A program made the translations under genes and the position numbers. A stretch of DNA of 64,000 nt from a bacterium (GTDB lineage Bacteria > CLD3 > SB21). The notes under the pieces were generated by a model. That model was given only the letters and a program-made list of their open reading frames with translations. It was not told where the DNA came from and made no database searches. Where the stretch lies: positions 3,281-67,280 of the forward strand of contig JAIBAF010000013.1 in the NCBI GenBank assembly GCA_019695335.1, read 5' to 3'. Positions within the stretch are counted from its first letter, which is position 1; every line of letters begins with the position of its first letter. Below are positions 4,128 to 37,465 of this stretch, piece by piece.

Positions 4128-5057
4128 TTATTGTGAACAGCCTGAATAACACAAATGTGTTCGCTTACCGTGCCCTGTCGACCATTCCAATTGATTCTCC
4201 GAATGAAATTTGATGATCCAAATTCCAATCGCAATAACGACTAATCCGATAATCATGCGTCGATAACGAACAAAACGATTACCTTTTCCTTGATGTATGA
4301 GGCGATCTAAGCGTTTTTCAAGCGACGCCGTAGCTGAGCTTGCAATCACCGGAACCGCCATTTCATTTCCGAGTGATAAATTCCACACTTTAACAAGGGC
4401 CGACGCCAGTTCCAACGGCCGATTAAAAACTTTCGAAACGATTTCGTCGCATGTTTGTTCATAAAACAGAACAAACGCCGGTTCCACATAACGATTAAAA
4501 AATAAAATCATTATTTGTGCCAACAATACAGAGAGCATGAGGCCGGCAAAATCAAAACGTTCATCAAGCGCCCGGTAAAATATCGCCAGACTGATAGCGT
4601 AAGATATCCATGTCAAAAAAGTTGTGGCCATTACTTTTTGCAAAAATTTCCTTAAATTATCCCGGCGCTTAACATGCACAAGTTCATGGGCCAATACCTG
4701 CCTTAATTCCCATTCATTCAAATTTCTTAATACCAATGGTGTTATAAATATTACCGGCTTCAAAAGCCCGGCGGTAAATACCGGTATCTCATTGGTAATG
4801 ATTCGAAGATCCGGATTAATGTGAAATTTCATAGCCGATGCAACTGACAACATGCTATCGTGCAATACACTATCGGCCTTGACCGATTGTTGAATTAATT
4901 TTTTCATTGAATATCCGTGCGTCCATAATCGAATCACAAATACCAATAGCAGCAAACACAGTAAACTCTGCAGGAAAAGTACATAACCACACCCGATTGG
5001 ATTCACAATAAAAAAACTTAAGAAAGTCAGAATATCGACGTAATACTGGCTCAACAT
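4128..5057 (-). CDS. M56-family (BlaR1/MecR1-like) membrane metalloprotease without a recognisable extracellular sensor domain
   Basis: HEXXH motif in AHELVHVKRRD. Multiple TM helices. Located 1 nt downstream of a BlaI-type repressor gene. Only 309 aa, with a Cys/His-rich tail HGKRTHLCYSGCSQ. Confidence 0.75.
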   Translation of the reverse strand: MLSQYYVDILTFLSFFIVNPIGCGYVLFLQSLLCLLLLVFVIRLWTHGYSMKKLIQQSVKADSVLHDSMLSVASAMKFHINPDLRIITNEIPVFTAGLLKPVIFITPLVLRNLNEWELRQVLAHELVHVKRRDNLRKFLQKVMATTFLTWISYAISLAIFYRALDERFDFAGLMLSVLLAQIMILFFNRYVEPAFVLFYEQTCDEIVSKVFNRPLELASALVKVWNLSLGNEMAVPVIASSATASLEKRLDRLIHQGKGNRFVRYRRMIIGLVVIAIGIWIIKFHSENQLEWSTGHGKRTHLCYSGCSQ

Positions 5058-5058
5058 A

Positions 5059-5484
5059 CTATTTTTTTTGTTTTTTTAATTTGGCGTCAATTAACTTAGA
5101 TAGTTCATGAATTTTCTGAGGATCTTCTTTTTCCAGCGAATCCACAAACTGACTTAATAAGGGCAACGAAAAGTCGGAAAGCAATCCTTTGAGAATAGTT
5201 TGGGAGGTTGTTTGAGTAAATATTTCCCGCGTCAGAATAGGCTCATAAATAAATGCATTCCCATCTTTAATTTTTTTCAATACGCCCTTCTGCGCAAGCC
5301 GCGTCATGACGGTCATAACCGTGGTATACGCAATACGGCGTTTAAGTTTCAATTTTTCAAAAACGTCTCTGACAGTCAAACGGCCGCTATTCCAAAGCAC
5401 TTCCATAATATCGGCTTCAAGATCACCAAAGATTTTTCGCAATCCGGTTTGGCGCGGATCAAATGTAAAATAATACTTTTTCAT
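5059..5484 (-). CDS. BlaI/MecI/CopY family transcriptional repressor
   Basis: 141 aa. Winged-helix region ADIMEVLWNSGRLTVRDVFEKL...YTTVMTVMTRLAQKGVL is typical of the Penicillinase_R family. It is paired with the M56 protease gene. Confidence 0.85.
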   Translation of the reverse strand: MKKYYFTFDPRQTGLRKIFGDLEADIMEVLWNSGRLTVRDVFEKLKLKRRIAYTTVMTVMTRLAQKGVLKKIKDGNAFIYEPILTREIFTQTTSQTILKGLLSDFSLPLLSQFVDSLEKEDPQKIHELSKLIDAKLKKQKK

Positions 5485-8275: not shown

Positions 8276-8421
8276 ATCATGCCAATTCCCCATTTAAATC
8301 TCCTTTAAAGCAATTGAGAACTCATCTCATTTTGAAACCCACATTAAAGATTTTTAATTTTTACTCCGCAACTATTTTAGTATAATATTCTGGCAACTTT
8401 GGACTGCAACTATGGAAAACA

Positions 8422-9753
8422 ATGAACGAATCGTTGCTTACTCTGTCGCTCTCACTATTATTATTTGCGTTAGTGTTTATTCCCTATCTTTGGTTTACCC
8501 AAAAGAAAAGAAAAACATTTGAGGCCAAAAAGCAGGAGGCCATTGCACTGGGGCATGATAAACCTGTTGCCCAACATCCGCTGATCGATCAATCCCGATG
8601 TATTGGTTGTGCGGCATGTGTTATTGCATGCCCGGAACATGCGCTCGGCATGATCGACGGAATGGCCGAATTGGTTTATCCCGGTAAATGCGTTGGCCAT
8701 GGTGTTTGCGCGGAAGCCTGCCCTGTCTCGGGCATTCGCATTGTGCTCGATCCCGCCAAATCAACTGCTGAATTACCTCTACTGGATGAATTTTTCCAAT
8801 CGAATGTTCCGAATGTGTATCTTATCGGGGAACTCGGCGGGATGGCACTGCTGCGTAATGCAATCTATCAAGGCAAATCGGTTATTGAACATATTTCCGA
8901 AAAAATTAAAAGTTCGCCCCGTCAAACAAACAATCCTTCACGGCATGACGTTATTATTATCGGTGCCGGTCCGGCCGGTCTCAGCGCCGCGCTCATGGCT
9001 CAGAAAAACGGATTAAATTATCTCCTGCTTGAGAAAGAAGAAACACCGGGCGGCGCCATTTTAAGTTACCCGCGTCAGAAACTCGTGATGACCATGCCCG
9101 TCGAAATTCCGCAATATGGCGTGCTCAAAAAACGCGAATTATCCAAAGAAGATTTATTAACGCTCTGGTCGGACATTATTCAGAAAACTTCTCTTAAAGT
9201 TACTTGCAATGAACGCCTTGAAGATGTGATTCACCATGAAGGAGCGCTGACGGTTGTCACTTCAGGTGGAAATCGTTACGATGCCGAACATGTTGTGTTA
9301 GCGCTGGGTCGTCGCGGAACTCCGCGAAAACTGAATGTACCCGGAGAACAATCGTCTAAAGTCGCTTACCAACTTCTTGAAGCCGTACGGTATAAACACA
9401 TGCATTGTATGGTCGTCGGCGCCGGCGACAGCGGTATCGAAGCTGCGATCGCACTTTCCAAGCAACATGGAACGACCGTTACGTTGATCAATCGCGGCAC
9501 GGACTTCCAGCGCGCCAAATCCAAAAATCAGGACCGTGTCCGTGAAGCTGAAACACAAAACCTGATCAAAATTTATTACCAATCTTCGGTTTCAGACATT
9601 CGTGATCACAGCATAACCATTCAATCACCGGAAGGCTCACTTGAAATAACCAACGATTTCATTTTCATTTTCGCGGGCGGCGAAATGCCGACGCCGTTCC
9701 TTAAAAAAATCGGAATAGAATTTACTCACAAAGACCGGATGATCGCCGCATGA
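8422..9753 (+). CDS. Membrane-anchored 2x[4Fe-4S] ferredoxin domain fused to an FAD/NAD(P)-dependent pyridine-nucleotide-disulfide-oxidoreductase-like domain
   Basis: N-terminal TM helix followed by KKRK. Cluster motifs CIGCAACVIACP and CVGHGVCAEACP. Dinucleotide motifs IIIGAGPAGLSAA and VVGAGDSGIEAA. Confidence 0.8.
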   Translation: MNESLLTLSLSLLLFALVFIPYLWFTQKKRKTFEAKKQEAIALGHDKPVAQHPLIDQSRCIGCAACVIACPEHALGMIDGMAELVYPGKCVGHGVCAEACPVSGIRIVLDPAKSTAELPLLDEFFQSNVPNVYLIGELGGMALLRNAIYQGKSVIEHISEKIKSSPRQTNNPSRHDVIIIGAGPAGLSAALMAQKNGLNYLLLEKEETPGGAILSYPRQKLVMTMPVEIPQYGVLKKRELSKEDLLTLWSDIIQKTSLKVTCNERLEDVIHHEGALTVVTSGGNRYDAEHVVLALGRRGTPRKLNVPGEQSSKVAYQLLEAVRYKHMHCMVVGAGDSGIEAAIALSKQHGTTVTLINRGTDFQRAKSKNQDRVREAETQNLIKIYYQSSVSDIRDHSITIQSPEGSLEITNDFIFIFAGGEMPTPFLKKIGIEFTHKDRMIAA

Positions 9754-10628
9754 ACCGAACATTGCACAGCATTTACATCCTCTCATTGACGGTCATTGGA
9801 ATTCTGATTGTCGCATGGATCGGAATTTACGGATGGAGTTATTATGCTACCGATGTGCCGGACCGGCATGAACATGCGTTGCATTCTACCCTTAGCCCCA
9901 CCGGATTTTGGGGACATGGAATGGGATTCATCGGCGCTTTCCTGATGACATTCGGCGTAGTCATGTACTCGCTCAGAAAACGTTGGAAATTGCTAGCCAA
10001 GGTCGGAATGATCAAGCATGTACTGGAACTGCATATTTTTTTGTGCCTGATTGGCCCCGCATTGATCGTCTATCACACAGCATTTAAGTTTGGAGGCATT
10101 GTGGGTGTGAGTTTTTGGTGCATGATGATCGTTGTTGCAAGCGGAGTGATTGGGCGATATCTATACTTGCAAATTCCAAAAACCGTAACCGGCCGCGAGA
10201 TTACTTCTTACGAACTTGAAAAACAGATTGACGCACTTCGAAAAAAATTATTGGATGAATTTAAAATACCCATAGAGTTTATAGCTCACATCGACGCCAT
10301 TTCCAGTGAACTGATCGAATCATCGAAAGCATCGCTAATTACAACTTTCCCAAAACTCGTCATACAAAACTTACGTCACGATGTTCGCGTTCGGTCTCTG
10401 ATTGCGTCGCTGTCGCACCAAAACGGATCGGCATCCGCCGAAGTGGTCAATGCCATTGCTGAAAAATCTCACTTACAAAGACAATTGGCTAATCTCACGG
10501 TCACGCAGAAACTATTTCGCTATTGGCATATGTTTCATTTACCGTTTGCAGTAGTCATGTTCATAATTATGATCGCTCATATTGTGGCAGCGTTTTTGTT
10601 TGGTTACGGTTGGATATTTACAGAATAG
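9750..10628 (+). CDS. 5-TM membrane protein with two His-x13-His helices (putative di-heme b-type cytochrome)
   Basis: Helices LHIFLCLIGPALIVYH and FHLPFAVVMFIIMIAH each carry His-x13-His. ATGA overlap with the upstream flavoprotein gene. The CDS is well supported; heme binding is inferred. Confidence 0.6.
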   Translation: MNRTLHSIYILSLTVIGILIVAWIGIYGWSYYATDVPDRHEHALHSTLSPTGFWGHGMGFIGAFLMTFGVVMYSLRKRWKLLAKVGMIKHVLELHIFLCLIGPALIVYHTAFKFGGIVGVSFWCMMIVVASGVIGRYLYLQIPKTVTGREITSYELEKQIDALRKKLLDEFKIPIEFIAHIDAISSELIESSKASLITTFPKLVIQNLRHDVRVRSLIASLSHQNGSASAEVVNAIAEKSHLQRQLANLTVTQKLFRYWHMFHLPFAVVMFIIMIAHIVAAFLFGYGWIFTE

Positions 10629-10667
10629 ATTGACCTTTATTCACCATTTAACAATCCAAGGAAATTC

Positions 10668-11246
10668 ATGAAAGACAAAAAAACTCTGGGACTTGTCGCC
10701 CTCGGAATAACGTTGTTAGTTTTTGCAGGATACAATTATTTCCAGTTGCCTAAATCTAAGCCGGTTTCCAATGAAGACACGGCTTCTTTACAGACCAGCA
10801 TTTCTTCCATTGACGGTAAAACCATGCCGGCCAACCATGATCAATTAGTTCAAGCCGATCAACTCAGAGAACATTTGAAATCGAATCCAACCGACACCGA
10901 TCATTGGGTTCAATTGGGTAATTTGCTTTTTGATGCAGGAAATTTTGCAGATGCTGTCGAACCGTACCGTACAGCACTCCAATTACGCCCGACAGATAAC
11001 GACGTACGAACCGATTATGCCGTTTGCTTGTTCAATACCAATCGATCCGATGAAGCAATTGCTGAGTTGAATACGGTCATCAAAAGTAATCCGAACCATA
11101 GCACGGCTTTATATAATATAGGTGTCATCCATTCGCATAGTGGCCGCAACGATCAAGCTAGAACATTCTGGAATCGGGCGATTGAGGCGGCGCCGAATTC
11201 CGACATCGCACAAAAAGCCCGGCAAGCTTTGGCTAATCTGAAATAA
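10668..11246 (+). CDS. TM-anchored periplasmic TPR protein (NrfG/CcmI-like, possible apocytochrome chaperone)
   Basis: N-terminal anchor LGLVALGITLLVFAGY. About three to four TPR units (WVQLGNLLFDAGNFADAVEPYRTAL, ALYNIGVIHSHSGRNDQARTFWNRAIE). Position is immediately upstream of the multiheme cytochrome genes. Confidence 0.6.
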   Translation: MKDKKTLGLVALGITLLVFAGYNYFQLPKSKPVSNEDTASLQTSISSIDGKTMPANHDQLVQADQLREHLKSNPTDTDHWVQLGNLLFDAGNFADAVEPYRTALQLRPTDNDVRTDYAVCLFNTNRSDEAIAELNTVIKSNPNHSTALYNIGVIHSHSGRNDQARTFWNRAIEAAPNSDIAQKARQALANLK

Positions 11247-11249
11247 AAA

Positions 11250-13016
11250 ATGAAACTCCTCATTACATTTATTCTCAATGTTCTTATAATTCCAGTCTGT
11301 GTCTACGCTCAATTTTCTCCCGGTGAATTGGCCCAATCGCATGCACATCTCGAAGGCATTGACAACTGTACGCAATGCCACGATCTTGGAAAGAAAATTG
11401 AAAATTCCAAATGTATCGATTGCCATTCGTTGATAAAAAACCGTATTGAAAAAAAGACCGGCTATCATGCTTCTACAGAAGTGCAGGGAAAACTGTGTTA
11501 CGAATGCCACCGCGATCACAATGGACGGAAATTCATCATGGTTGAATGGAAACCGTCGAAAGAAAAATTCAATCATGATCTAACCGGTTACAAACTCGAG
11601 GGAAAACATAAAACCGATAAGTGCGAAGCCTGCCATCAACCCGATTTTATCAAAGATCAGGGTGTGATCCAACGGGTAAAAGATGGGTTAAATTTAAAAC
11701 AAACTTTTCTCGGACTTTTTCAAGATTGCCGTTCATGCCATTTTGATGAACATCGCGGTCAATTCGATGATTGTTCAAAGTGTCATGATTTCCAGGATTG
11801 GAAACAATCGTCTTCCGCTAAATTTGATCATCAAAAAGCACGGTATGCGTTAACCGGTAGACATTTGTCTGTAGAATGTGTAAAATGCCACGCTCCCGTA
11901 AACGATTCGAAGAAAAAACCGGATGGAAAAACTGACCTCGATTATTTTAAATACAAACCGCTTAATTTTTCAAACTGTACTCCTTGCCATGCCGATCCGC
12001 ATGAAAACAAATTTGGCCAAAACTGCACGTCGTGTCACGTGACTTCAGACTGGCGAAATATTCGCAATCAATCCTTCGACCACTCTCTGACACGTTATCC
12101 ATTAGTAGGAAAACATACGACAGTGGCCTGCGAACGTTGCCATCAGCCTGATCCTAAAAAGCCGTCCGTTTACAAAAATATGAAATTTGCAGAGTGCACG
12201 GACTGTCACGCCGACGCACACGCTGGACAACTGGCCGCGAGAGCGGATAAGGGCAAATGCGAATCGTGTCATGACGTCTTCGGATTCCATCCATCGCTCT
12301 TTACCCTCGCCAGGCATACAACGGAGAGCCGTTACCCGTTGACCGGCGCTCACGAAAAAACCGAATGTATCAAATGCCACGTAAAATTATCTCCAAAGGA
12401 ATTTAAAGATCGAACGGGTTTCAAGGCGACGGCCGATTCAAATTTCATCGCACTCAAGTTTTTCGATCAGCGTTGCAGCGCCTGTCACAAAGACATCCAT
12501 CGCGGCCAATTTGCGGAAAAATTAAAAAATAATGATTGCAACATCTGCCATAAAACATCGGCATGGAAAGATCTGATTTTTGATCACGCCAAAGATTCAG
12601 GATTTCCATTGTTAGGCAAACATCAAAACGTTACCTGCGACCAATGTCATCCGATGGTCGATGCGACGACGGAATTCAAACGCGTTTTATACAAACCTGT
12701 TTCGAAATTCTGCGAACACTGCCACACTGATATTCATGAAGGACAACTTACTCAACATCCCGACGCTACTACCGCTCATCCGAAAACTTATTGCGAAAAT
12801 TGCCACACCAACGATGCGTTCAAGCCGACGATTTTTGATCACAATAAACAATCGCGCTACGCACTGACCGGCGCACATCAAAAAGTCGCATGCAATAAAT
12901 GCCACCTACAAACTACGATCAAAGCGGATACGTTGAATACTCTGTACAAGCCGATCAGCACGGAATGTGCCGCCTGCCATCCCGATCAACATGAAGGAGT
13001 GTTTGAAATCAAATGA
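11250..13016 (+). CDS. Secreted multiheme c-type cytochrome, 20 CxxCH motifs
   Basis: Signal peptide MKLLITFILNVLIIPVCVYAQ. I counted 20 CxxCH motifs in the translation. There are six repeats of F-[DN]-H..L.G.H....CxxCH (one begins A-R-H instead), typical of c7/c3-like triheme modules. Confidence 0.9.
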   Translation: MKLLITFILNVLIIPVCVYAQFSPGELAQSHAHLEGIDNCTQCHDLGKKIENSKCIDCHSLIKNRIEKKTGYHASTEVQGKLCYECHRDHNGRKFIMVEWKPSKEKFNHDLTGYKLEGKHKTDKCEACHQPDFIKDQGVIQRVKDGLNLKQTFLGLFQDCRSCHFDEHRGQFDDCSKCHDFQDWKQSSSAKFDHQKARYALTGRHLSVECVKCHAPVNDSKKKPDGKTDLDYFKYKPLNFSNCTPCHADPHENKFGQNCTSCHVTSDWRNIRNQSFDHSLTRYPLVGKHTTVACERCHQPDPKKPSVYKNMKFAECTDCHADAHAGQLAARADKGKCESCHDVFGFHPSLFTLARHTTESRYPLTGAHEKTECIKCHVKLSPKEFKDRTGFKATADSNFIALKFFDQRCSACHKDIHRGQFAEKLKNNDCNICHKTSAWKDLIFDHAKDSGFPLLGKHQNVTCDQCHPMVDATTEFKRVLYKPVSKFCEHCHTDIHEGQLTQHPDATTAHPKTYCENCHTNDAFKPTIFDHNKQSRYALTGAHQKVACNKCHLQTTIKADTLNTLYKPISTECAACHPDQHEGVFEIK

Positions 13017-13765
13017 AAATGATTTTTTTTACAGCATTTTTGGTAATGGCGTTTGAATGGAACAATTTACCGGCCAAGCCCGATAATACAATTTCATTGG
13101 ACACTAGTTTGTTGCCGGACACGCCGTTCGTCAAAATTCCGCACAAAACGTTTGATGTCCCATGCGAAGCATGTCACACAACCGAATCGTGGAAAATTTT
13201 GAAACCCAGGATCGATTTTGATCATGCGCGTACGGGATTTCCTCTAATTGGCGCCCACGAGCAGATTGCCTGCAATGCTTGTCACGCGGGAGGCAAGTTC
13301 AACGCAACGGTTCGTGAATGTTATATGTGCCATGAAGACCCGCATCAGGCTCAGCTCGGCGTCGACTGTGAACGCTGTCATAATGAAAATGCCTGGGCGC
13401 CCTCGATTTTCACTCACGACGATCAAACATTTTTTATGACGGGCGCGCACAAAGGACTCGATTGCGCCAGTTGCCACAAAAATCTGATCACTTTTAAAAT
13501 GCCGGCTATCCAGGAATGCGGCGATTGCCACGTTCCGATCGGTGCGACCACGGATCATAACCAGTACAAAATTTTCGGCGACTGTCTCTCATGCCACAAT
13601 TTAAACGCGTGGGACAACTATCCTCATTTAGACGAATGGTTTTCGCTCACCGGCCATCATCGCCGCAGTTGTGAAACCTGTCATCGCCAGGCGCCAAACT
13701 ATTCAACCTATACTTGTCGTGAATGTCACGATTTCGATCATAAAGGCGAAGGGCATGACGATTAA
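13013..13765 (+). CDS. Secreted multiheme c-type cytochrome, 9 CxxCH motifs
   Basis: Hydrophobic N-terminus. 9 CxxCH motifs counted. Same module type as the 20-heme protein (FDHARTGFPLIGAHEQIACNACH). ATGA overlap with the 20-heme gene. Confidence 0.9.
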   Translation: MKMIFFTAFLVMAFEWNNLPAKPDNTISLDTSLLPDTPFVKIPHKTFDVPCEACHTTESWKILKPRIDFDHARTGFPLIGAHEQIACNACHAGGKFNATVRECYMCHEDPHQAQLGVDCERCHNENAWAPSIFTHDDQTFFMTGAHKGLDCASCHKNLITFKMPAIQECGDCHVPIGATTDHNQYKIFGDCLSCHNLNAWDNYPHLDEWFSLTGHHRRSCETCHRQAPNYSTYTCRECHDFDHKGEGHDD

Positions 13766-13781
13766 CGTCATTTGAATTATT

Positions 13782-15062
13782 ATGAAAAAATTGATCATAC
13801 TTTATTTGTTTGCCGCAACAACTTCGGCATTCAGCCAAATTGCCGGATCGAACAATAATCTCGTCGGACGTTTTTCAGTTGGATGGAATTACTATTCTGA
13901 AGGCGCGTCGTTGTCGCCGCAACTCAACAGTTTTACCAATTACGGAATGCTTAACTATCGTTCATTCTCCAATGACGGACAGACGATCCGATATCAATTT
14001 CGTGGAGATTTTTACCAGAAAACAGGTCTGACGACAACACCCACTCTTGATCGCAGCGCTCAATTTAAAAACCGTTATATTGTCAGACAATTGTACGGTT
14101 CCTATTCAATTTTTCACGGTGAAATTAAACTGGGACGTGTTGTTCCGCTGGGTACGAATGTCGACGCGTATCCGATCAACGGAGCTGTTGTAGAAAATAT
14201 GATAGTAAACAACGTATGGCGCGTATCGGCTTTCGGTGGAAAAATTCACGATGAATATGCCAATCGTTTCGAAGGATTAGGCTACAACGCCGGAGGAAGC
14301 GTGACTTACGATCGCAAAACGTGGATACTCGGAACAGGATTTACTTCCGAACAATTGCGTGAGACTAAATTAAGCAAAGCGTATCTCTTCGGAGAATATC
14401 GCCCGTCATTGCAATGGCGTTTTAGTTCACGTAATCAGTATATCACTAATCGTTCGTTGATCGGCTATTCTCAAAATGCGCTGTTGTATCGAATCAATAG
14501 AAATTTCAGCGTACGTCTGTTTGCCGAATATCATGATCGACGGGCGTATGCGCCGGCGCCAACGGACAGCATCGGATGGGACCGCTTTTTCGAAACAAAA
14601 AAAGAAACTCTGTTCGGCGGCACGGTTCGCTACCAGCTTTTTAACCGCAAAAATATCGGCGCGATAGAAATTGTCCCGGCTTTCAAAAAGCGGATCGGTA
14701 ACGACGGCTTGACATATGGCGCTGTGCAATTAAATTATCGAAATTATTTCTGGTCGCGATTTAATTGCGGAATTGCCGGCAGTTATACCAGCAATCAGTG
14801 GCTCGACAATGTCAAAGCAAGCGTATACTGGAACAAAAATTTTCTTGATGGAAAATTAGACGGTGGAATTTCAGCGGCATTTAACGCTTATAAGTGGAGT
14901 AATGCCGGGGCCGGCACTAAAAATTTATCAACTGTTTCATTTGATATGAATTATCGTTTGAATACTGCATGGAACATCACGTGCGTTGTATATGAAGAAT
15001 TCGGCAATGCGACCGATCCTCATTCGGGAATCAATGTACGGATGAATTATTATCTACGATAA
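13782..15062 (+). CDS. Predicted outer-membrane beta-barrel protein (porin-like partner of the cytochromes)
   Basis: Signal peptide MKKLIILYLFAATTSAFSQ. Aromatic- and Gly/Asn-rich alternating segments throughout (for example YGAVQLNYRNYF, FDMNYRLN, GINVRMNYY). Starts 16 nt after the 9-heme gene. Confidence 0.55.
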   Translation: MKKLIILYLFAATTSAFSQIAGSNNNLVGRFSVGWNYYSEGASLSPQLNSFTNYGMLNYRSFSNDGQTIRYQFRGDFYQKTGLTTTPTLDRSAQFKNRYIVRQLYGSYSIFHGEIKLGRVVPLGTNVDAYPINGAVVENMIVNNVWRVSAFGGKIHDEYANRFEGLGYNAGGSVTYDRKTWILGTGFTSEQLRETKLSKAYLFGEYRPSLQWRFSSRNQYITNRSLIGYSQNALLYRINRNFSVRLFAEYHDRRAYAPAPTDSIGWDRFFETKKETLFGGTVRYQLFNRKNIGAIEIVPAFKKRIGNDGLTYGAVQLNYRNYFWSRFNCGIAGSYTSNQWLDNVKASVYWNKNFLDGKLDGGISAAFNAYKWSNAGAGTKNLSTVSFDMNYRLNTAWNITCVVYEEFGNATDPHSGINVRMNYYLR

Positions 15063-17129: not shown

Positions 17130-19298
17130 ATGCATTTACGTAACATTACGAATAATCTTGCAACTGGAGTTATTACAACGGGCGGCATCGGTCTGATCAT
17201 CATTGTCGTCGGTATTATTTTATTTATATTTTATCAGGCTTTGCCGTTGTGGCAAAGCGCTAAAACGGATAAACTGCAAGACATCAATATTGCGCAACTG
17301 ATTCCTTCCGATGAATCCGTTGTGTACGCCGGCGAAGAAGAACAAAAAGAAATTTTATACGTCATCACTCAAAATGGCCGTATTTATTTCGTTAACCTTT
17401 CACAGAACAAATTAATCGGTCATACGGAACTGACCAAACTCAACGGCCATTCTATTTCGTCAGCGGCCGCACTTTTTGGAACACACCGCATCGCACTTGG
17501 AACCAATCACGGTGAAATTGCTGAAATCGATATCAAATTCAGTACGTTATTTGAATCGAACGGACGTACGATTGTTCCCGAAGCCGTTGAAAAAGGGTGG
17601 TACCGCCTTCATAACGATTCCCCCATCACGCGTTTGGAAATCGGTCATGAAGACGACCGTTTGGTATTTGCGGGCGTGCAAACCACTGACCGCCAGAAAA
17701 TTTTTGTTGCACGAACATTTGCAGACACGGCGGCTCTTCAAATTAATTACTTGGAAAATTTTACAACCGCGGTAACGGCATTGACCGTTAACTCGTCGTC
17801 ATCTGAAATTATTTTTGGATTCGGCGACGGTTTTATCGAACGGCGTAATTTTGACGGAAATCTAATCGAACATATCAACGTTTCATCGCAAGCCGTCACA
17901 GCTTTAAAATATCTGATCGGCGACATTACTTTGATCGCAGGCGACGCGCGAGGCAATGTCACCGGCTGGATGGTTGTTGGAAGCAACGGTACTGCGCCAA
18001 CTTTAACGAAATTCCGTACCTTTGAAACGCATGCACAGCCCATCCAAACTATTGCCGTTTCATGGCGAAATAAATCATTCATAACTGCCGACGCTTCCGG
18101 CGTTATTCATCTGAATCACTCTACAACTGAACAAACTTTATTGAATCTGAAAGCTGCCGATCAGGCAGCACATCTTGTAAATTTTTCTCCGAAGTCCGAC
18201 GGTATTCTGATTCTGAACCCTTCCGGCATAATATCGAATTATCAACTTACTAACGCACATCCGGAAGCAACCTTTAAGACGTTATTTGGAAAAGTATGGT
18301 ACGAAAGCTACCCGGATCCGTCCTATACATGGCAATCGACCGGAGGCACCGATGATTTCGAGCCGAAGATCAGTATGATCCCGTTGATATTCGGAACGCT
18401 CAAAGGAACGTTGTACGCCATGGTTTTTGCCATTCCACTGGCGATTTTTGGCGCCATTTACACTTCACAATTTGCTCATCCGCGAATTCGAACGATCATC
18501 AAACCCGCCGTGGAAATCATGGCTGCTTTACCCAGCGTTGTGATCGGATTTATTGCCGGATTGTGGCTCGCACCGCTGATGAAAAACGTGATGGTTGAAT
18601 TTATCGTCATGCTGATTCTCACACCGTTATTGATTTTCTTTTTCTTTTACGGTTACAGCCAATTGCCCCGGCGATGGACGTCATCCATCAAGCAGGGTTA
18701 TGAAGTTTTTATGATGATCCCGGTGTTGATCTTGGCCGGATTCCTGTGTTATCAGATTGGATATACGATTGAAAGCGGTTGGTTTGGCGGGGATATTCAG
18801 ACGTGGCTGTACCAAACGCTCGATATTCGTTACGATCAAAGAAATGCAATTATCGTCGGTATCGCAATGGCCTTTGCCGTCATGCCGATTATTTTTACGA
18901 TCACCGAAGATTCGCTCAGCAGCGTTCCCGCTCATTTAACTTCTGCGTCACTGGCGCTCGGTGCAAGCCGCTGGCAAACCGCCGTCAAAGTTGTACTCCC
19001 GGCCGCAAGCGCAGGGATTTTTTCAGCCGTCATGATCGGTTTCGGCCGTGCCGTCGGTGAAACCATGATCGTACTGATGGCGACCGGCAACACGCCGATC
19101 ATGGACTGGAGCATTTTCAACGGCATGCGCACGTTGTCCGCCAATATCGCCGTGGAAATTCCTGAAGCGCCGCATGGCGGAACACTATACCGGGTTTTGT
19201 TTCTCTCAGGAGCTTTACTTTTTATTATGACGTTTATCGTCAATACCGTCGCTGAAATCGTGCGGCAACGGTTACGGAAAAAATATGCAACGATGTAA
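17130..19298 (+). CDS. pstC: Phosphate ABC transporter permease PstC, long form with an approximately 390-aa N-terminal periplasmic beta-propeller-like domain
   Basis: The C-terminal 300 aa carry the permease core with an EAA-like loop (ASLALGASRWQTAVKVVLPAA). An N-terminal TM helix is followed by repetitive beta-rich sequence. Confidence 0.85.
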   Translation: MHLRNITNNLATGVITTGGIGLIIIVVGIILFIFYQALPLWQSAKTDKLQDINIAQLIPSDESVVYAGEEEQKEILYVITQNGRIYFVNLSQNKLIGHTELTKLNGHSISSAAALFGTHRIALGTNHGEIAEIDIKFSTLFESNGRTIVPEAVEKGWYRLHNDSPITRLEIGHEDDRLVFAGVQTTDRQKIFVARTFADTAALQINYLENFTTAVTALTVNSSSSEIIFGFGDGFIERRNFDGNLIEHINVSSQAVTALKYLIGDITLIAGDARGNVTGWMVVGSNGTAPTLTKFRTFETHAQPIQTIAVSWRNKSFITADASGVIHLNHSTTEQTLLNLKAADQAAHLVNFSPKSDGILILNPSGIISNYQLTNAHPEATFKTLFGKVWYESYPDPSYTWQSTGGTDDFEPKISMIPLIFGTLKGTLYAMVFAIPLAIFGAIYTSQFAHPRIRTIIKPAVEIMAALPSVVIGFIAGLWLAPLMKNVMVEFIVMLILTPLLIFFFFYGYSQLPRRWTSSIKQGYEVFMMIPVLILAGFLCYQIGYTIESGWFGGDIQTWLYQTLDIRYDQRNAIIVGIAMAFAVMPIIFTITEDSLSSVPAHLTSASLALGASRWQTAVKVVLPAASAGIFSAVMIGFGRAVGETMIVLMATGNTPIMDWSIFNGMRTLSANIAVEIPEAPHGGTLYRVLFLSGALLFIMTFIVNTVAEIVRQRLRKKYATM

Positions 19299-19342
19299 TA
19301 AATCTTATTTTTTGATTTCTATAGTCGGATTCTAATTTTTAT

Positions 19343-20968
19343 ATGAAGAAAATATTACAAAGCGGCGATTTATTTTTGTGGTTCACCGGAGCGGCCCTTG
19401 GAACGATTATTCTGCTGGTTGCCGGACTGCTCTTTATTGTGGGATTGAATGGCGTCGGAGTATTCTGGCCTTCCAATCTTGCGTTGGTTCAATACGGCGA
19501 CGGACGCCAATGGCTGGGTGAAATCGGCGCTGAAGAAATGATCCCGTCGTCCAATCTTCCTGAAAATTTGAAAAACGGCAATCATGCCCGCTTCCAAATG
19601 AAAATCGGTAACCGCGATGTGTACGGTGTCGATTTCAAATGGATCAACGACTACGAATTGGCGGAGTTGCGTTACCCGGAAAATGCCATCGCCGTCGAGC
19701 GTCGTGAATACGGCAATCTGTACGGTTTTCTCGAAGGCATCAAAGAATCGGACCGGCTGATCGTTCAAGGTGATGAAGCGCTGACCACGTTTGCTTCATT
19801 GCTCGAAAAATCCAACGATGTTTTCAATCAAAGAGCCAGCTTGGAAAAAAGTGAAGTTGGAATAATCAATTTTCGAATTGAACAATTACGCCTGAAAATA
19901 AAACAATTGGAATACGATGGCGGTCATTCGGAAAGTGAAATTCAGGCGCTTCGGGCTTCCATAGATGATCAGCAAAAAAAATATGAAGTTTTGCGGCAGT
20001 CGATCGATGAATTGAACGCCAAAACGGCATCCACTTATGTGATTTTTAAATTAGCCGACGGATCAACAAAAGAAATTCCCATTTCTAAAATCATCCGCTT
20101 CTATTTGCCGAATCAAATGAACTGGCCGGATAAATTGCAATATTACGTAGCAAAAATCTGGGAATTTCTTTCCAGCGATCCCAGGGAATCGAATACGGAA
20201 GGCGGCGTATTTCCCGCCATTTTCGGAACCGTAATGATGGTATTGATCATGACACTGGCTGTCGTGCCTTTTGGAGTGCTGGCTGCTGTGTATTTGCGTG
20301 AATATGCCAAACAAGGTGTTCTGGTACGATTGATCCGCATTGCCGTAAATAACCTGGCCGGCGTTCCTTCGATCGTATTCGGAATTTTCGGATTAGGTTT
20401 TTTTGTGTATTTATGTGGCGGTACAATTGATCAATTATTTTACCCGGAACGGCTTCCATCGCCGACGTGGGGCACAGGCGGAATCTTATGGGCTTCGCTG
20501 ACGCTGTCGCTTTTGACGATTCCTGTAGTCATCGTTGCAACAGAAGAAGCGATCAGCGCCGTACCGAAAGGCGTGCGCGACGGCTCGATGGCTCTGGGCG
20601 CTACCAAATGGCAAACGACGTGGCGAGTCGTATTACCGGCATCGACGCCCGGGATATTGACCGGTGTGATTTTATCGATGGCACGCGGGGCGGGCGAAGT
20701 CGCTCCGCTGATGATCACCGGCGTCGTCAAACTCGCTCCGAATCTACCGATCGATCAAATGTGGCCATTGGTTCATCTCGACCGGAAATTCATGCACTTA
20801 GGTTTTCACATTTATGACGTTGGCTTTCAATCGCCGAATGTCGAAGCGGCAAAACCAATGGTTTTCATGACAGCGTTGCTTTTGATTGCAATTGTGTTAT
20901 TGCTGAATCTTACAGCCATTATCATTCGCGCACGGCTGAGAAAAAAATATCAGAGTTCGGCTTTTTGA
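19343..20968 (+). CDS. pstA: Phosphate ABC transporter permease PstA, long form
   Basis: C-terminal permease core (SMALGATKWQTTWRVVLPAS). An N-terminal TM helix is followed by an approximately 270-aa extra domain with a coiled-coil segment. Confidence 0.85.
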   Translation: MKKILQSGDLFLWFTGAALGTIILLVAGLLFIVGLNGVGVFWPSNLALVQYGDGRQWLGEIGAEEMIPSSNLPENLKNGNHARFQMKIGNRDVYGVDFKWINDYELAELRYPENAIAVERREYGNLYGFLEGIKESDRLIVQGDEALTTFASLLEKSNDVFNQRASLEKSEVGIINFRIEQLRLKIKQLEYDGGHSESEIQALRASIDDQQKKYEVLRQSIDELNAKTASTYVIFKLADGSTKEIPISKIIRFYLPNQMNWPDKLQYYVAKIWEFLSSDPRESNTEGGVFPAIFGTVMMVLIMTLAVVPFGVLAAVYLREYAKQGVLVRLIRIAVNNLAGVPSIVFGIFGLGFFVYLCGGTIDQLFYPERLPSPTWGTGGILWASLTLSLLTIPVVIVATEEAISAVPKGVRDGSMALGATKWQTTWRVVLPASTPGILTGVILSMARGAGEVAPLMITGVVKLAPNLPIDQMWPLVHLDRKFMHLGFHIYDVGFQSPNVEAAKPMVFMTALLLIAIVLLLNLTAIIIRARLRKKYQSSAF

Positions 20969-26629: not shown

Positions 26630-27985
26630 CTATAGCAATTTCTCAAGCTTTTCATTCACCAGTTTTTGGGCTTTATTCCAATCGACCTCATCCACATTTA
26701 TTTTTCCCAACGCTAACTCGTTCAAAATCGTATCCTGAATCTTCCCTCTTGAAAGCGCTACAGAATACGGCATTCGGCGAAAAGTGACCATCGAGTATTT
26801 TGGAATAAATTGTTCGGGAAATTTCTCCTCAAGAACGTGCTCGATTTTCTTCTTCAAAACAAATACCGGATCGGCTACAAGATCGCGCATTTCATAAAAA
26901 TTTTCTACGGCCAGATCAGCGATCGCATCCGTATTGATCTTCCGCGATTGCTCATATTCTGAAAATACCTTTTCCCAATCATCCCCATGCCGGCCGACAC
27001 ATTCATCCAGCACAACGCAATCTTCAAATGAACAGTTCATACCTTGCCCGAAAAACGGAACGATCGCATGCGCTGCGTCGCCCAATAAAGACGCCGTATT
27101 GCCGGCATGCCAAGGAAAACATTTGACTGTCATCAGTGAACTAGTCGGATTGTCAAAAAAATCTTCGAGCAATGTCGGCATGAGCGGAACGGCATCCGAA
27201 AACTGCTCCTTAAAAAATCGGTTTACCTTTTCTTTCGTATCAAGACTGGCGAAACTGACGTGACCTTCCATCGGAAAAAATAACGTGCACGTAAAACTGC
27301 CGTCCATATTCGGAAGCGCGATCAGCATGTATGTTTTTCGCGGCCAGATATGAAGCGCATTTTTTTCGATTAAAAAATTACCGTCACCTCCGGCAGGAAT
27401 CGACAACTCTTTATATCCGTGTTCAAGATAACTTTGAGAATAATTGAAGCGCCCGATTTTCATCATATCATAACGAATCGCCGAAGCAGAACCATCCGTT
27501 CCGATAACCGTGTCAGCTTTGACACAGACTGTTTGTTGAGCTATTTCATCAAAAATTTCTGCCTCTCCCGTAGCAAAATTCATCCCTGTGCATCGTTTAT
27601 TGAAATGAATCTTCACGCGATCGTATCGTTCAGCCAGATCCATCATCGCCATGTTTAACTGACCTCGGGATACAGAGTAAATGACTTCTGTGTCATCTTT
27701 TCCATATGGAATGAAATTTAACGCGCCTTCCGGAGCATGGATCAGCCTTCCTTTCATCGGAATTGCGATTTTCAAAATCTCACGATCGAGCCCGACGCCT
27801 TTCAAGGCATGTAAACCTCGCAACGAGAGAGCAAGATTAATGGAACGCCCGGCGCTGATGTGCGTGGTACGCATGTCCGGTCTGCGCTCGTAGATATCAA
27901 CATAAAAACCACGCTTAGCCAAATAAACCGCCAGCAGTGATCCCGCCAACCCGGCTCCGATCAGAATGATGTGTTTTTCTTTCAT
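26630..27985 (-). CDS. kmo: Kynurenine 3-monooxygenase (FAD-dependent)
   Basis: N-terminal IILIGAGLAGSLLAVYLAKRGFYVDIYERRPD. DG motif GTDGSASAIR and GD motif LLGDAAHAIVPFFGQGMN. Pathway context. Confidence 0.85.
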   Translation of the reverse strand: MKEKHIILIGAGLAGSLLAVYLAKRGFYVDIYERRPDMRTTHISAGRSINLALSLRGLHALKGVGLDREILKIAIPMKGRLIHAPEGALNFIPYGKDDTEVIYSVSRGQLNMAMMDLAERYDRVKIHFNKRCTGMNFATGEAEIFDEIAQQTVCVKADTVIGTDGSASAIRYDMMKIGRFNYSQSYLEHGYKELSIPAGGDGNFLIEKNALHIWPRKTYMLIALPNMDGSFTCTLFFPMEGHVSFASLDTKEKVNRFFKEQFSDAVPLMPTLLEDFFDNPTSSLMTVKCFPWHAGNTASLLGDAAHAIVPFFGQGMNCSFEDCVVLDECVGRHGDDWEKVFSEYEQSRKINTDAIADLAVENFYEMRDLVADPVFVLKKKIEHVLEEKFPEQFIPKYSMVTFRRMPYSVALSRGKIQDTILNELALGKINVDEVDWNKAQKLVNEKLEKLL

Positions 27986-28024
27986 GTGTTTTTCTCTAAC
28001 GGTAATAAAATTCTGCGCTGGAAA

Positions 28025-29290
28025 TTAAATCGCTTCTCTCAGAATTTCAGAAAAGCGATAGACATCCATAAATGAATTATATAAAGGCGCTGGGGCAACG
28101 CGAACAACATCCGGTTCTCTCCAGTCACAGAATACGCCTCCATCGGTCAGCTTTTGATGAAATTTCTTTCCATTGCCATGTATTCTCAACGACAATTGAT
28201 TACCTCTCTGTTTACGATCGGTTGGCGTGATGATCGTGATAAATTTACCGGCTATCTCGCGAATGATCGACTCGAGATAACCGGTCAGTAAATCGCCTTT
28301 AGCTCGAATATTTTCTATGCCTGCTTCATCAAAAATTTCCAGCGATGCATTGACGGCCGCCATCGAAAGAATCGGCGGATTACTCAACTGCCAGCCTTCA
28401 GCTCCCTCGATCGGCACGAAATCGGGACCCATGATAAATCTGGTTTTTTTATCGTGACCCCACCACCCAGCAAAACGCGGTAAGCTCGATTTACGCGCAT
28501 ACCGTTCGTGCACGAAACACCCGGCGATACTCCCAGGCCCTGAATTAAGATATTTGTACGAACACCACACGGCAAAATCCACGTCCCAATCGTGTAATTT
28601 CAAAACTAAATTGCCGGCTGCATGAGCAAGATCAAATCCAACCATGCATCCTTGCGCGTGTGCAGCTTTTGTAATTCGCTCGATGTCATAAGCCTGGCCT
28701 GAATAGTAATTAATACCGCCGATAAGAATGAGCGCAATATCTTTGCCTTTTTTTTCGATAAGCGCCTCGATATCATCGGTTCGGATAATATCTTCTCCGG
28801 ATCGCGGGGCGATTTCAATAATCGCATCCTTAGGATCAAAATGATGAAACGCAATCTGCGATTGCACGGCATATTGATCGGATGGAAAAGCCGTGTGCTC
28901 CATCAATATTTTGTACCGCGTAGCTGTCGGGCGATAAAACGAAACCATCATTAAATGCAGATTAACCGTGAGTGAATTCATATTAACAACTTCGATCGGT
29001 TTCGCACCGACCAGGCGGGCGGTTTTTTCAGCCAAAAACTCATGATAAGGCAGCCACGGCCGTTTTGCATGAAAATGCCCTTCGACCGCAAGATTCTCCC
29101 AATCTTTAAGCTCCTGTTCAAGATGCATCCGAACATTTTTGGGCTGCAGTCCAAGCGAGTTCCCGCATAAATAAATACAATCATCGCCATTTTTCAATTT
29201 TGGTATATAAAACCGTTCTCTGAATTTTTTTAAAGGATCTTTCGAATCCATATCTTCGGCAAACGAGCGGCTTAGATCGAATTTGATCAT
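28025..29290 (-). CDS. kynU: Kynureninase (PLP-dependent)
   Basis: 421 aa. Motifs YLCGNSLGLQPK and FAVWCSYKYLNSGPG (PLP-Lys region) are characteristic of kynureninase. Confidence 0.85.
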   Translation of the reverse strand: MIKFDLSRSFAEDMDSKDPLKKFRERFYIPKLKNGDDCIYLCGNSLGLQPKNVRMHLEQELKDWENLAVEGHFHAKRPWLPYHEFLAEKTARLVGAKPIEVVNMNSLTVNLHLMMVSFYRPTATRYKILMEHTAFPSDQYAVQSQIAFHHFDPKDAIIEIAPRSGEDIIRTDDIEALIEKKGKDIALILIGGINYYSGQAYDIERITKAAHAQGCMVGFDLAHAAGNLVLKLHDWDVDFAVWCSYKYLNSGPGSIAGCFVHERYARKSSLPRFAGWWGHDKKTRFIMGPDFVPIEGAEGWQLSNPPILSMAAVNASLEIFDEAGIENIRAKGDLLTGYLESIIREIAGKFITIITPTDRKQRGNQLSLRIHGNGKKFHQKLTDGGVFCDWREPDVVRVAPAPLYNSFMDVYRFSEILREAI

Positions 29291-29346
29291 AAAATTTATT
29301 TTTTTGGAATTGAAATTCTAAGAGCAACAATCCCCGTCTCTTGAAT

Positions 29347-30162: not shown

Positions 30163-30175
30163 AGAAATTTTCTGA

Positions 30176-31186: not shown

Positions 31187-31196
31187 AAAAAAGATC

Positions 31197-31721: not shown

Positions 31722-31761
31722 AACTTACCTCATACGTTATGTTAATCGGTTTTCAGAATTT

Positions 31762-32391: not shown

Positions 32392-32394
32392 GGC

Positions 32395-32814: not shown

Positions 32815-32848
32815 GCATGAACAATCTGTAATTTAAAATCTAAAATAA

Positions 32849-35229: not shown

Positions 35230-35231
35230 AA

Positions 35232-36640: not shown

Positions 36641-36663
36641 AAGTTGTTAATCAAAATTCTTTC

Positions 36664-37452: not shown

Positions 37453-37465
37453 TCACACCTGCCAA

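Follow-up and report, generated by a model that had tools for sequence, protein, structure and literature searches.

Does a trans-envelope chain of multiheme cytochromes have to be fed with quinol, or can it draw electrons from a cytoplasmic NAD(P)H-oxidizing enzyme of its own? The question is raised by six genes (g1 to g6) on the plus strand of the 64-kb stretch of DNA analyzed here (contig JAIBAF010000013.1, positions 3,281 to 67,280; hereafter the window). They occupy positions 8422-15062 and encode, in this order, a membrane-anchored iron-sulfur (FeS) flavoprotein, a membrane protein with five transmembrane (TM) helices, a TPR protein, two secreted multiheme c-type cytochromes and a candidate outer-membrane beta-barrel. 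A preliminary description made from the sequence had read this operon as an electron conduit of unusual design that bypasses the quinone pool. We find that interpretation partly supported: every test named there as able to overturn it, and amenable to computation, came out in its favor, and the literature on the PCC3 type of porin-cytochrome cluster partly anticipates it. We consider it probable, though by no means certain, that the operon is a compact PCC3-type trans-envelope electron conduit equipped with its own cytoplasmic input enzyme.

The six open reading frames (ORFs) are co-directional and lie exactly where they had first been placed, with intergenic gaps of -4, 39, 3, -4 and 16 nt from g1 to g6 and ATGA start/stop overlaps at 9750-9753 (g1/g2) and 13013-13016 (g4/g5). 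The heme count reported earlier is also exact, with 20 CxxCH motifs in g4 and 9 in g5, and no other ORF of at least 100 aa in the window contains a CxxCH motif. The flanking genes, a LOG-family gene upstream and a convergent HAD hydrolase gene followed by a pst phosphate-transport operon downstream, are unrelated to the operon, and the six-gene unit is therefore well bounded. A sigma-70 consensus scan found no site within the intergenic region that precedes g1 (Table 1), and promoter and terminator scans overall gave counts close to those of shuffled sequence; an Rfam scan of the whole window matched no family.

The predicted entry point of the chain, g1, consists of an N-terminal TM helix (aa 5-23), a dicluster ferredoxin-like domain and a TrxR/YpdA-like domain with two Rossmann folds for FAD and NAD(P)H. 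Its Pfam matches are Pyr_redox_3 (2.6e-42) and Fer4_10 (8e-10), and the closest solved structures are YpdA/Bdr (7a76, 4e-30, residues 174-435) and the TrxR-like FNR 3ab1. Six of the 15 residues that follow the TM helix are Lys or Arg, and by the positive-inside rule the catalytic domain is predicted to face the cytoplasm; a periplasmic placement had been named at the outset as fatal to the proposed electron path. Of the two CxxCxxCxxxCP ferredoxin motifs originally assigned to g1, the first (at C60) is present, whereas the second reads C90-x2-H93-x2-C96-x3-C100-P, with a His in the position of a Cys. Across 76 g1 homologues H52, C60, C66, C70, C90, H93, C96 and C100 are invariant, and C63 (motif 1, second Cys) is retained in the window protein but replaced by Ser or Thr in 65 of the 76. 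Because of this pattern of ligand conservation, the conserved cofactor set would be one three-Cys cluster and one His-ligated cluster. Although a Fer4 fold is detected, g1 lacks the two complete CxxCxxCxxxCP motifs that define a 2x[4Fe-4S] ferredoxin, and its FeS domain is thus not a classical member of that group.

The flavin domain shares its type of FAD and NAD(P)H Rossmann folds with the TrxR and YpdA (Bdr) disulfide reductases, and differs from them in the active site. Neither the CxxC of TrxR nor the active-site Cys of YpdA is found in g1, where the first Rossmann motif is GAGPAG (at 181) and the second GAGDSG (at 333). Only two Cys, C262 and C329, lie outside the FeS domain, neither of them at a position conserved among the 76 homologues. 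A role of g1 as a thiol-disulfide reductase was accordingly rejected, and since the flavin domain has no conserved redox-active cysteine, NAD(P)(H) is the only evident substrate. The protein also falls below the cut-offs of the nearest defined families (TIGR04018, 161 vs 339.9; TIGR01292, 85.5 vs 343). Two arginines that follow GAGDSG, R358 (invariant) and R364 (conserved in at least 90% of the 76 homologues), resemble the NADPH 2'-phosphate site of thioredoxin reductases, a hint that the substrate may be NADPH.

The second protein, g2, is predicted to have five TM helices with the N-terminus inside and the C-terminus outside, and its loops 76-89 (6 Lys/Arg) and 135-265 would be cytoplasmic, the latter corresponding to a helical insert of 130 residues between TM4 and TM5. 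The AlphaFold2 model is all-helical (pLDDT 81). Two H-x13-H pairs lie in predicted TM3 (H95/H109) and predicted TM5 (H263/H277), and in 31 g2 homologues (down to 39% identity) these four residues are invariant, as are H56, H260 and S131-G132-x-x-G135. The last of these is the SGxxG motif of TM4 (S131-G-V-I-G135 in the window), and TM5 carries W259-x3-H263-x13-H277; the corresponding Trp of TM3 is a family consensus, but is Val in the window protein. Such an arrangement suggests two b-type hemes, which He et al. (2017) proposed independently for a membrane protein of this type (PMC5566968).

Beyond these motifs, g2 stands apart from described families. No Pfam or NCBIfam family matched it even at E <= 10, the best Foldseek hit of the model against the PDB had E = 0.57 (unrelated channels and receptors), and a g2 profile run against PDB sequences returned coiled-coil noise on the cytoplasmic loop only. 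The ferric-reductase domain PF01794 (Ferric_reduct) is absent from g2 even at E <= 10 and from the 31 homologues at E <= 1. Two faint family signals were seen in relatives and not in the window protein: DUF4405 in 8 of the 31 members (best 26.3 bits vs a threshold of 26.7, with only TM5 aligned) and Ni_hydr_CYTB in 5 of the 31, below threshold (best E 0.017, mostly TM5).

The two cytochromes belong to the wire-like kind. The 20 CxxCH motifs of g4 are accompanied by 26 further His residues at 29.4 aa per heme (Cytochrome_C7, 6.5e-24), and the 9 of g5 by 12 further His residues at a similar spacing (Cytochrome_C7, 2.8e-14), so that, given these numbers of non-motif His, bis-His ligation would be possible for every heme; the low ratio of 28-29 residues per heme in both proteins is shared with other wire-like cytochromes. 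A phmmer search of g4 and g5 against the PDB found no relative, and neither protein has a lipobox. The signal peptide of g4 ends in VYA before a Gln, and the mature N-terminus, Q(I/F/V)SPGEL..AH..LEG, is conserved across phyla; the protein is presumably periplasmic.

The last gene of the operon had been suspected to encode a barrel, and modeling bears this out. The AlphaFold2 model of g6 (pLDDT 83.7) shows 22 antiparallel strands after the signal peptide, and Foldseek aligns it with probability 1.00 (E 3e-9) to the FimD/PapC usher pores, chitoporin, AlgE and OprD, which makes us confident in predicting an outer-membrane barrel. Neither Pfam nor NCBIfam holds a family that matches g6 even at E <= 10, and 15 g6 homologues likewise matched no Pfam family at E <= 1. 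Profile alignment with hhalign relates g6 to the ~540-aa protein that closes the clusters of other lineages (probability 91.7, E 8e-7, 297 columns), a barrel family that ends in the ...RF/KF typical of outer-membrane proteins. The remaining protein, g3, has a TM helix at aa 7-25 preceded by 3 Lys/Arg, which would leave its C-terminus on the outer side (N-in). It matches PF23914 (TPR_CcmH_CycH) at 60.2 bits vs a cut-off of 42, beside generic TPR families, and reaches only 28 vs a cut-off of 306 in the NrfG equivalog model; its likeness to the apocytochrome-chaperone TPR proteins CcmI, CycH and NrfG thus appears to be a resemblance at the domain level.

To place the operon among its relatives, we surveyed the neighborhoods of g2 homologues, which occur in at least 589 species-level genomes. 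The best 80 loci were analyzed, and linkage was counted over the 47 that have ~10 kb of sequence downstream of g2. A g1 homologue is present in 46 of the 47, a multiheme cytochrome in 45 and a barrel of the g6/~540-aa family in 44, which answers in the affirmative the question raised by the preliminary description of whether the flavoprotein/membrane-protein pair regularly accompanies cytochromes and a barrel. The TPR protein is found in 23 of these loci. The cytochrome in the g4 position has exactly 20 hemes in 37 of the 47, and 23 in three high-GC loci and in Emticicia. The second cytochrome gene, which begins SPHG...C..CH and always lies directly upstream of the barrel gene in the surveyed loci, is far more variable, with 9 to at least 83 hemes elsewhere, g5 being its minimal form. 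The common gene order is g2-(g3)-g1-20-heme cytochrome-second cytochrome-barrel, and the g1-g2 order of the window recurs only in locus L001. Carriers include Ignavibacteriota, Melioribacteraceae, Prolixibacteraceae, Marinilabiliaceae and Saprospiraceae, among them the cultured Maribellus sediminis Y2-1-60 and Mangrovibacterium lignilyticum BM_7; Sunxiuqinia sp. A32 is another cultured carrier.

The family extends well beyond these groups. A g2 profile search returned 3,983 cluster representatives at 50% identity. A distant branch of at least 1,485 proteins, at 68-72% GC, has named members annotated as Gemmatimonadetes/Gemmatimonadales, with one partial match in Acidobacteriota. All three loci sampled from this high-GC branch contain the full set of g1, g2, two cytochromes and a barrel. 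Their g2 proteins keep both H-x13-H pairs and their g1 proteins the TM anchor and Cx2Hx2Cx3CP. The cytochromes are a 23-heme protein with the Q.SPG..AH mature N-terminus and a second one of 9-23 hemes beginning SPHG, and the barrels match the g6/~540-aa family at E 1e-44 to 1e-53. The same parts (g2-like, g1-like, 23-heme and 40-heme cytochromes, barrel) are found on plasmid pEMTOL02 of the cultured Emticicia oligotrophica DSM 17448 (NC_018749.1; locus L087, 6899-18697; proteins WP_015031196.1 and WP_015031197.1), directly downstream of a gene for a 1028-aa fused ResB/CcsA (CcsBA) cytochrome-c synthase. This plasmid-borne copy suggests horizontal mobility and points to a tractable test organism.

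Several loci depart from the common plan. In two Ignavibacteria loci (L006, 1005-3869; L043, 4387-7197) housekeeping genes come after g2-g3-g1, and neither a cytochrome nor a barrel is encoded within 10 kb, which identifies the g2-g3-g1 trio as a separable unit; either the partners are encoded elsewhere in these genomes or the trio has another role. Conversely, the closest relatives of the window with sequence past the barrel have extra giant cytochromes downstream of it, of 20 + 44 hemes in L003 (6044-11375) and 20 + 22 + 16 hemes in L004 (15475-20490). These extra genes are absent from the window, where the convergent HAD gene follows the barrel gene directly; L001 ends inside the barrel gene. 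In the high-GC locus L081 (1305-8374) the neighbors of the module are CcmE and a divergent molybdopterin oxidoreductase, the latter accompanied by an NrfD-type membrane subunit, a 4Fe-4S protein and two cytochromes c; this group might act as a second redox partner. One ORF, P0183 (418 aa), joins 227 N-terminal g2-like residues, a short CxxCH-containing stretch and a g1-like C-terminal half; it was rejected as a Rosetta-stone fusion and is probably a frameshifted or chimeric assembly.

An independent view of what g2 does comes from its distant homologues, recovered by tblastn of annotated plasmids. At 22-27% identity to g2 (E 1e-17 to 1e-22 with profile A1), these proteins are predicted to have five TM helices and both H-x13-H pairs, and most keep SGxxG. 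In Alteromonas, Variovorax, Methylophaga, Legionella and Spirosoma the g2 homologue is encoded between an upstream FNR-type reductase and a downstream 7-heme cytochrome, and in Methylocystis a reductase and membrane protein pair is present with no cytochrome gene listed. The reductase (560-690 aa; FAD_binding_6, NAD_binding_1 and 2Fe-2S) is non-homologous to g1 and weakly matches the NAD-binding domain of ferric reductases. In Sphingobium the g2 homologue lies between an upstream rearranged g1 homologue, in which Pyr_redox_3 is followed by two cNMP-binding domains and a C-terminal 4Fe-4S dicluster domain, and a downstream 10-heme cytochrome. Most junctions in these plasmid modules are 4-nt start/stop overlaps, those of Variovorax and Methylocystis excepted. 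The proteobacterial g2 homologues found in this way form smaller modules without a porin.

By these domain assignments, the g2 family has on no fewer than three occasions been combined with a flavo-FeS reductase of the NAD(P)H type, two of these reductases having unrelated folds, and on every occasion a periplasmic multiheme cytochrome completes the set. This repeated pairing is the strongest in silico evidence that the family moves electrons between cytoplasmic NAD(P)(H) and periplasmic cytochromes, and it lends independent support to the NOX-like logic that had been suspected for g1 and g2, in which NAD(P)H would pass electrons through a flavin and two b hemes to the outside.

The three-gene module itself (FNR-type reductase, ~250-aa g2-like di-heme protein, 7-heme cytochrome) recurs inside copper/heavy-metal resistance islands (Table 1). 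In five of six cases the reductase starts with a signal-like N-terminus, and a stretch rich in His and Met that resembles a copper site, together with a single TM helix, precedes domains that would be cytoplasmic, the topology being deduced from this one detected helix; the Methylocystis protein starts within the Met-rich stretch. The module could be an NAD(P)H-driven reductase system for periplasmic metal (Cu).

How does the operon compare with described systems? The PCC3 cluster was predicted from the genomes of Fe(II) oxidizers by He, Barco, Emerson and Roden (2017) and comprises a porin, a periplasmic multiheme cytochrome (median 21 hemes), an extracellular multiheme cytochrome (median 34 hemes) and an inner-membrane protein of ~300 aa with five TM helices, SGxxG on TM4 and Wx3Hx13H on TM3 and TM5 (PMC5566968). 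The window has the same parts, namely the barrel g6, a periplasmic-type cytochrome g4 with 20 hemes, a second cytochrome of the variable kind and the five-TM protein g2 with its SGxxG and Hx13H motifs, and by part list and motifs this four-part core appears to match the predicted cluster. The earlier claim of an unusual or unknown design was in this respect overstated, a cluster with the same core having been predicted in 2017 (PMC5566968). The likeness is one of parts, motifs and descriptions, as distinct from alignment to reference proteobacterial proteins such as those of Sideroxydans lithotrophicus ES-1.

The differences concern size, hosts and the input. The second PCC3 cytochrome has 10-35 hemes or more, against 9 in g5 and 9 to at least 83 in its homologues, and the published barrels have up to 42 predicted strands, against 22 in the window. 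PCC3 was described from Alpha-, Beta- and Gammaproteobacteria, whereas the present clusters are found in Bacteroidota, Ignavibacteriota and the high-GC Gemmatimonadota-like branch. Finally, the TM-anchored FeS-flavoprotein that is almost always linked here, and the TPR protein linked in about half of the loci, lie outside the published definition, which assumed exchange with quinones. He et al. compared the PCC3 membrane protein with ferric reductase/NOX domains, yet modeled it as a quinone-active cytochrome b, and make no mention of FAD, ferredoxin or pyridine nucleotides around PCC3 (PMC5566968); in the Gallionellaceae pangenome of Hoover et al. (2023) PCC3 still has four components (PMC10734462). 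Related Bacteroidetes clusters have been noted only as "putative PCCs without homology to known PCCs", and giant Saprospiraceae cytochromes only as "undescribed". Among open-access papers we found none that links a flavoprotein to PCC3-type clusters, a scope that leaves room for an earlier description elsewhere. The NAD(P)H flavoprotein input, together with the TPR accessory in some lineages, is thus apparently what is new.

MtrCAB of Shewanella and the OmaB/OmbB/OmcB Pcc system of Geobacter share with the operon the principle of a barrel-sheathed multiheme cytochrome encoded by clustered genes. The parts are different: g4 scores 34.8 bits against the MtrA/DmsE family TIGR03508 (cut-off 192.2) and g5 does not match it, while g6 belongs to no Pfam porin family, including that of the MtrB/PioB type, and has 22 strands as opposed to 26 in MtrB. 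In Mtr and Pcc the electrons come from the quinol dehydrogenases CymA, ImcH and CbcL, and the operon has a gene for none of these. A description-based comparison with the pcc cluster of Ignavibacterium album (IALB_1837-1840; Shi et al. 2014), whose periplasmic cytochrome has 14 hemes and 400 aa, shows that its gene order and periplasmic cytochrome differ from those of the window operon.

With the NOX/FRD superfamily the pair g1-g2 shares the route from cytoplasmic NAD(P)H through a flavin and His-ligated b heme(s) on TM3 and TM5 to an acceptor at the outer face, and with MsrQ/Fre the provision of the reductase as a separate protein (PMC12525009; PMC5676040). Like members of the superfamily, g2 has two His pairs on predicted TM3 and TM5 with the spacing of 13 (or 12) residues that is typical of heme ligation there. 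On the other hand, g2 has five TM helices instead of six, lacks PF01794 and has no Foldseek match to NOX or STEAP; NOX uses an FNR-like domain, whereas g1 is TrxR/YpdA-like with two FeS clusters, and the acceptor would be a multiheme cytochrome chain. The Hmc, Tmc, Qmo and DsrMK complexes of sulfate reducers likewise link periplasmic multiheme cytochromes c through a membrane cytochrome b to cytoplasmic FeS proteins or flavoproteins, but the flow is usually inward, to the enzymes of sulfate reduction, and there is no outer-membrane component. Neither an HdrD-type CCG domain nor a NarI/HdrE-type subunit is found among the family matches considered for g2 and for g1 (for g1, the best 25 of 38 Pfam and the best 25 of 271 NCBIfam families). 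The flavin-based extracellular electron transfer of Listeria (Ndh2, DmkA, EetAB, PplA) is alike in being a dedicated NADH-oxidizing route by which a fermentative heterotroph dumps electrons outside; it is Gram-positive and demethylmenaquinone-dependent, and uses a flavinylated lipoprotein with no hemes and no barrel. Measured against the features that define the Mtr, NOX/FRD, TrxR/YpdA and Hmc/Tmc families, the operon belongs to none of them; by analogy, it may work like a two-component NOX or an MsrQ/Fre system coupled to a conduit of the porin-cytochrome kind.

From cofactor motifs, topology and gene linkage we infer the following path, which supposes that the predicted cofactors are bound and that the proteins associate. 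Anchored to the inner face of the membrane through its single TM helix, g1 would oxidize NAD(P)H at its FAD. The electrons would leave through the two FeS clusters, one with three invariant Cys ligands and one ligated by His, the latter being the plausible exit cluster, as a His ligand is typical of such clusters. Next in line would be the two b hemes of g2, first the one on the cytoplasmic side (H95/H263) and then, across the membrane, the one on the periplasmic side (H109/H277), followed by the 20 hemes of g4. This protein may extend over the whole width of the periplasm, a span for which cytochromes as large as g4 have been considered sufficient (PMC5566968, PMC10734462). From g4 they would move to the nine hemes of g5, seated in the 22-strand barrel of g6, and on to an extracellular or surface acceptor, candidates for which are Fe(III)/Mn(IV) minerals, humics, an electrode or a partner cell. 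The accessory g3 would act in the periplasm as an apocytochrome chaperone or a scaffold. Outward is the most likely net direction, and a heterotroph of fermentative or facultative habit would in this way recover its NAD(P)+ by a route in which quinones need not take part.

A number of observations weigh against this reading. The binding of heme b by g2 is deduced from its motifs, and the protein has no significant Pfam family, relative among PDB sequences or Foldseek match. Di-heme b proteins often carry quinone sites, and the genome may well encode a quinol dehydrogenase outside the 64-kb window. The reach of the chain to the cell surface is proposed for a g5 with only nine hemes, and the Ignavibacteria loci L006 and L043 have the g2-g3-g1 trio with neither cytochromes nor a barrel nearby. 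By our own reasoning, outward flow would dissipate membrane potential, making the conduit an electron sink that conserves no energy itself. PCC3, to which the operon is compared, is itself a genomic prediction (PMC5566968, PMC10734462), and in Gallionellaceae it was proposed to carry electrons inward (PMC10734462). Finally, MsrQ serves as a precedent in both senses: this b-heme protein of the membrane can receive electrons from an NAD(P)H reductase in the cytosol and hand them to a partner in the periplasm, and it also binds ubiquinone (PMC12525009).

The last point leads to the alternative that fares best, although we hold it to be rather unlikely, namely that g2 is a quinol dehydrogenase or quinone reductase and menaquinol the real link to the cytochromes. 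Variants of this idea would make g1-g2 a membrane-bound NAD(P)H:menaquinone oxidoreductase, or g1 a second, alternative donor. In its favor, He et al. modeled the g2-type protein as a quinone-active cytochrome b, and H-x13-H pairs are a signature of bc1-complex cytochrome b as well (PMC5566968); the ubiquinone binding of MsrQ fits it too (PMC12525009), as do the weak profile matches to the prokaryotic cytochrome b561/Ni_hydr_CYTB family, which is quinone-reactive. The published descriptions of proteobacterial PCC3 clusters moreover list no reductase gene (PMC5566968, PMC10734462). Against this, an NAD(P)H-type flavo-FeS protein adjoins the membrane protein in every branch that we examined, mostly with a 4-nt overlap, and these reductases come from two non-homologous families in three domain orders, a recurrence hard to explain if the donor were quinol. 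No quinone-site motif was identified in the membrane protein.

Reversing the flow, so that electrons taken up from Fe(II), Fe(0), a cathode or a partner cell would reach NAD(P)+ via g2 and g1, gives an alternative that we regard as improbable. TrxR-like FNRs do run in both directions. PCC3 was moreover discovered in Fe(II) oxidizers and has been discussed as an uptake route (PMC5566968, PMC10734462), and multiheme conduits such as Mtr/Mto are reversible (PMC10734462). By our reasoning, however, delivery to NAD(P)+ (about -320 mV) would have to run uphill twice, against the redox gradient when the donor is of the Fe(II) type and against a membrane potential that is negative inside, and the operon encodes no energy-coupling subunit. 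For this reason, and because the carriers are mostly heterotrophs (Bacteroidota, Ignavibacteriota and the high-GC Gemmatimonadota-like branch), outward flow is favored; the increase of Ignavibacteria in Fe(III)-dosed sludge (PMC11495043) likewise speaks against uptake.

Still less probable, in our estimate, is a maturation module, in which g1, g2 and g3 would provide the periplasm with reductant so that heme iron or apocytochromes stay in the proper state during the assembly of the giant cytochromes, the working conduit being fed by another enzyme encoded elsewhere. The match of g3 to the CcmH/CycH apocytochrome-chaperone domain above the Pfam threshold would agree with such a role, as would the isolated trio of L006 and L043 and the cytochrome-c biogenesis genes that adjoin some loci (ccsBA in Emticicia, CcmE in L081, ccmA-F near the Methylophaga module). 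However, g3 is missing from about half of the clusters, in which g1 and g2 are near-universal, none of g1, g2 and g3 has a conserved thiol-redox motif, and the small three-gene modules serve a single 7-heme cytochrome with no TPR protein. We also know of no b-heme/NAD(P)H system dedicated to cytochrome maturation. An accidental adjacency of the flavoprotein/membrane-protein pair and the porin-cytochrome cluster, which the variable gene order (g1-g2 in the window, mostly g2-(g3)-g1 elsewhere, with a divergently transcribed g1 in L081) might have suggested, is effectively refuted by the neighborhood survey, as the parts co-occur in 45-46 of 47 loci, in at least three phyla and in a distant sequence branch despite the rearrangements, with ATGA start/stop overlaps in the window.

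Taking the NAD(P)H-fed conduit as the preferred reading, we advance a broader and more tentative proposal. It is quite possible, if short of an even chance, that g1 and g2 represent a widespread, unrecognized group of two-component prokaryotic NOX-like NAD(P)H:multiheme-cytochrome oxidoreductases, with a new di-heme b fold that arose separately from the ferric-reductase domain and came to be combined with no fewer than two unrelated NAD(P)H reductases, and that in the window they form with g4-g6 one continuous 31-heme wire from NAD(P)H to the surface without a quinone step. To our knowledge, all characterized Gram-negative routes of extracellular electron transfer begin at the quinone pool. 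If the proposal is true, it would add a new mode of such transfer in Bacteroidota, Ignavibacteriota and the high-GC Gemmatimonadota-like branch, and it might supply the inner-membrane mechanism that PCC3 in general has lacked since its prediction in 2017. A family of ~4,000 representatives at 50% identity, for which Pfam gives no significant match, would thereby gain a function. A conduit fed by NAD(P)H would also alter models of the energetics and ecology of metal, humic and electrode reduction by heterotrophs of sediment, sludge and soil; those concerned are Ignavibacteria, Prolixibacteraceae, Saprospiraceae and the high-GC Gemmatimonadota-like carriers, many of which have giant unexplained multiheme cytochromes. 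Since the module is present in cultured strains and on the Emticicia oligotrophica DSM 17448 plasmid, the hypothesis is open to genetics and biochemistry.

Table 1. Features of the operon and plasmid-borne three-gene modules (window positions for the operon; locus label with coordinates for the modules).
Feature	Position	Strand	Size	Description and proposed role
g1	8422..9753	+	443 aa	Membrane-anchored FeS-flavoprotein; proposed cytoplasmic NAD(P)H-oxidizing input module
g2	9750..10628	+	292 aa	Inner-membrane protein of the PCC3 inner-membrane protein type; proposed di-heme b transmembrane electron carrier
g3	10668..11246	+	192 aa	N-terminally anchored TPR protein, predicted periplasmic; putative accessory (assembly or scaffold)
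g4	11250..13016	+	588 aa	Secreted 20-heme c-type cytochrome; proposed periplasm-spanning wire, equivalent to the PCC3 periplasmic multiheme cytochrome
g5	13013..13765	+	250 aa	Secreted 9-heme c-type cytochrome; proposed to thread the barrel and reach the surface
g6	13782..15062	+	426 aa	Predicted outer-membrane 22-stranded beta-barrel with signal peptide; proposed sheath for g5
Upstream intergenic region	8276..8421	+	146 nt	Presumed promoter region; only sizeable non-coding gap before g1
Three-gene module, Alteromonas macleodii plasmid	L088 5974-9457			
Three-gene module, Variovorax plasmid	L089 5884-9570			
Three-gene module, Methylophaga plasmid	L090 6058-9412			
Three-gene module, Spirosoma plasmid	L091 5887-9472			
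Three-gene module, Legionella plasmid	L093 4049-7511			
Module, Methylocystis plasmid	L094 4207-6654			

Other parts of the window yielded observations of a separate kind. On the minus strand, positions 26630-38572 hold an apparent kynurenine pathway cluster for tryptophan degradation or NAD synthesis, with genes for tryptophan 2,3-dioxygenase, a cyclase-type formamidase, a KMO-like FAD monooxygenase, kynureninase, 3-hydroxyanthranilate dioxygenase, an ACMSD-type amidohydrolase, an aldehyde dehydrogenase and a RidA protein. Two pst-type permease genes at 17130-20968 (plus strand) are unusually long (722 and 541 aa); in the 722-aa protein BPD_transp_1 begins only at residue 524, and the N-terminal extension of ~500 aa gives a weak, sub-threshold beta-propeller-like signal. 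A BlaI-type repressor (Penicillinase_R) is paired with a membrane sensor of the BlaR1/M56-M48 peptidase type at 4128-5484 (minus strand). At 54442-55773 (minus strand) lies the gene of a secreted 443-aa protein with a GWxTD domain, and its neighbor at 57263-58162 encodes a secreted protein of 299 aa that falls outside the Pfam families.

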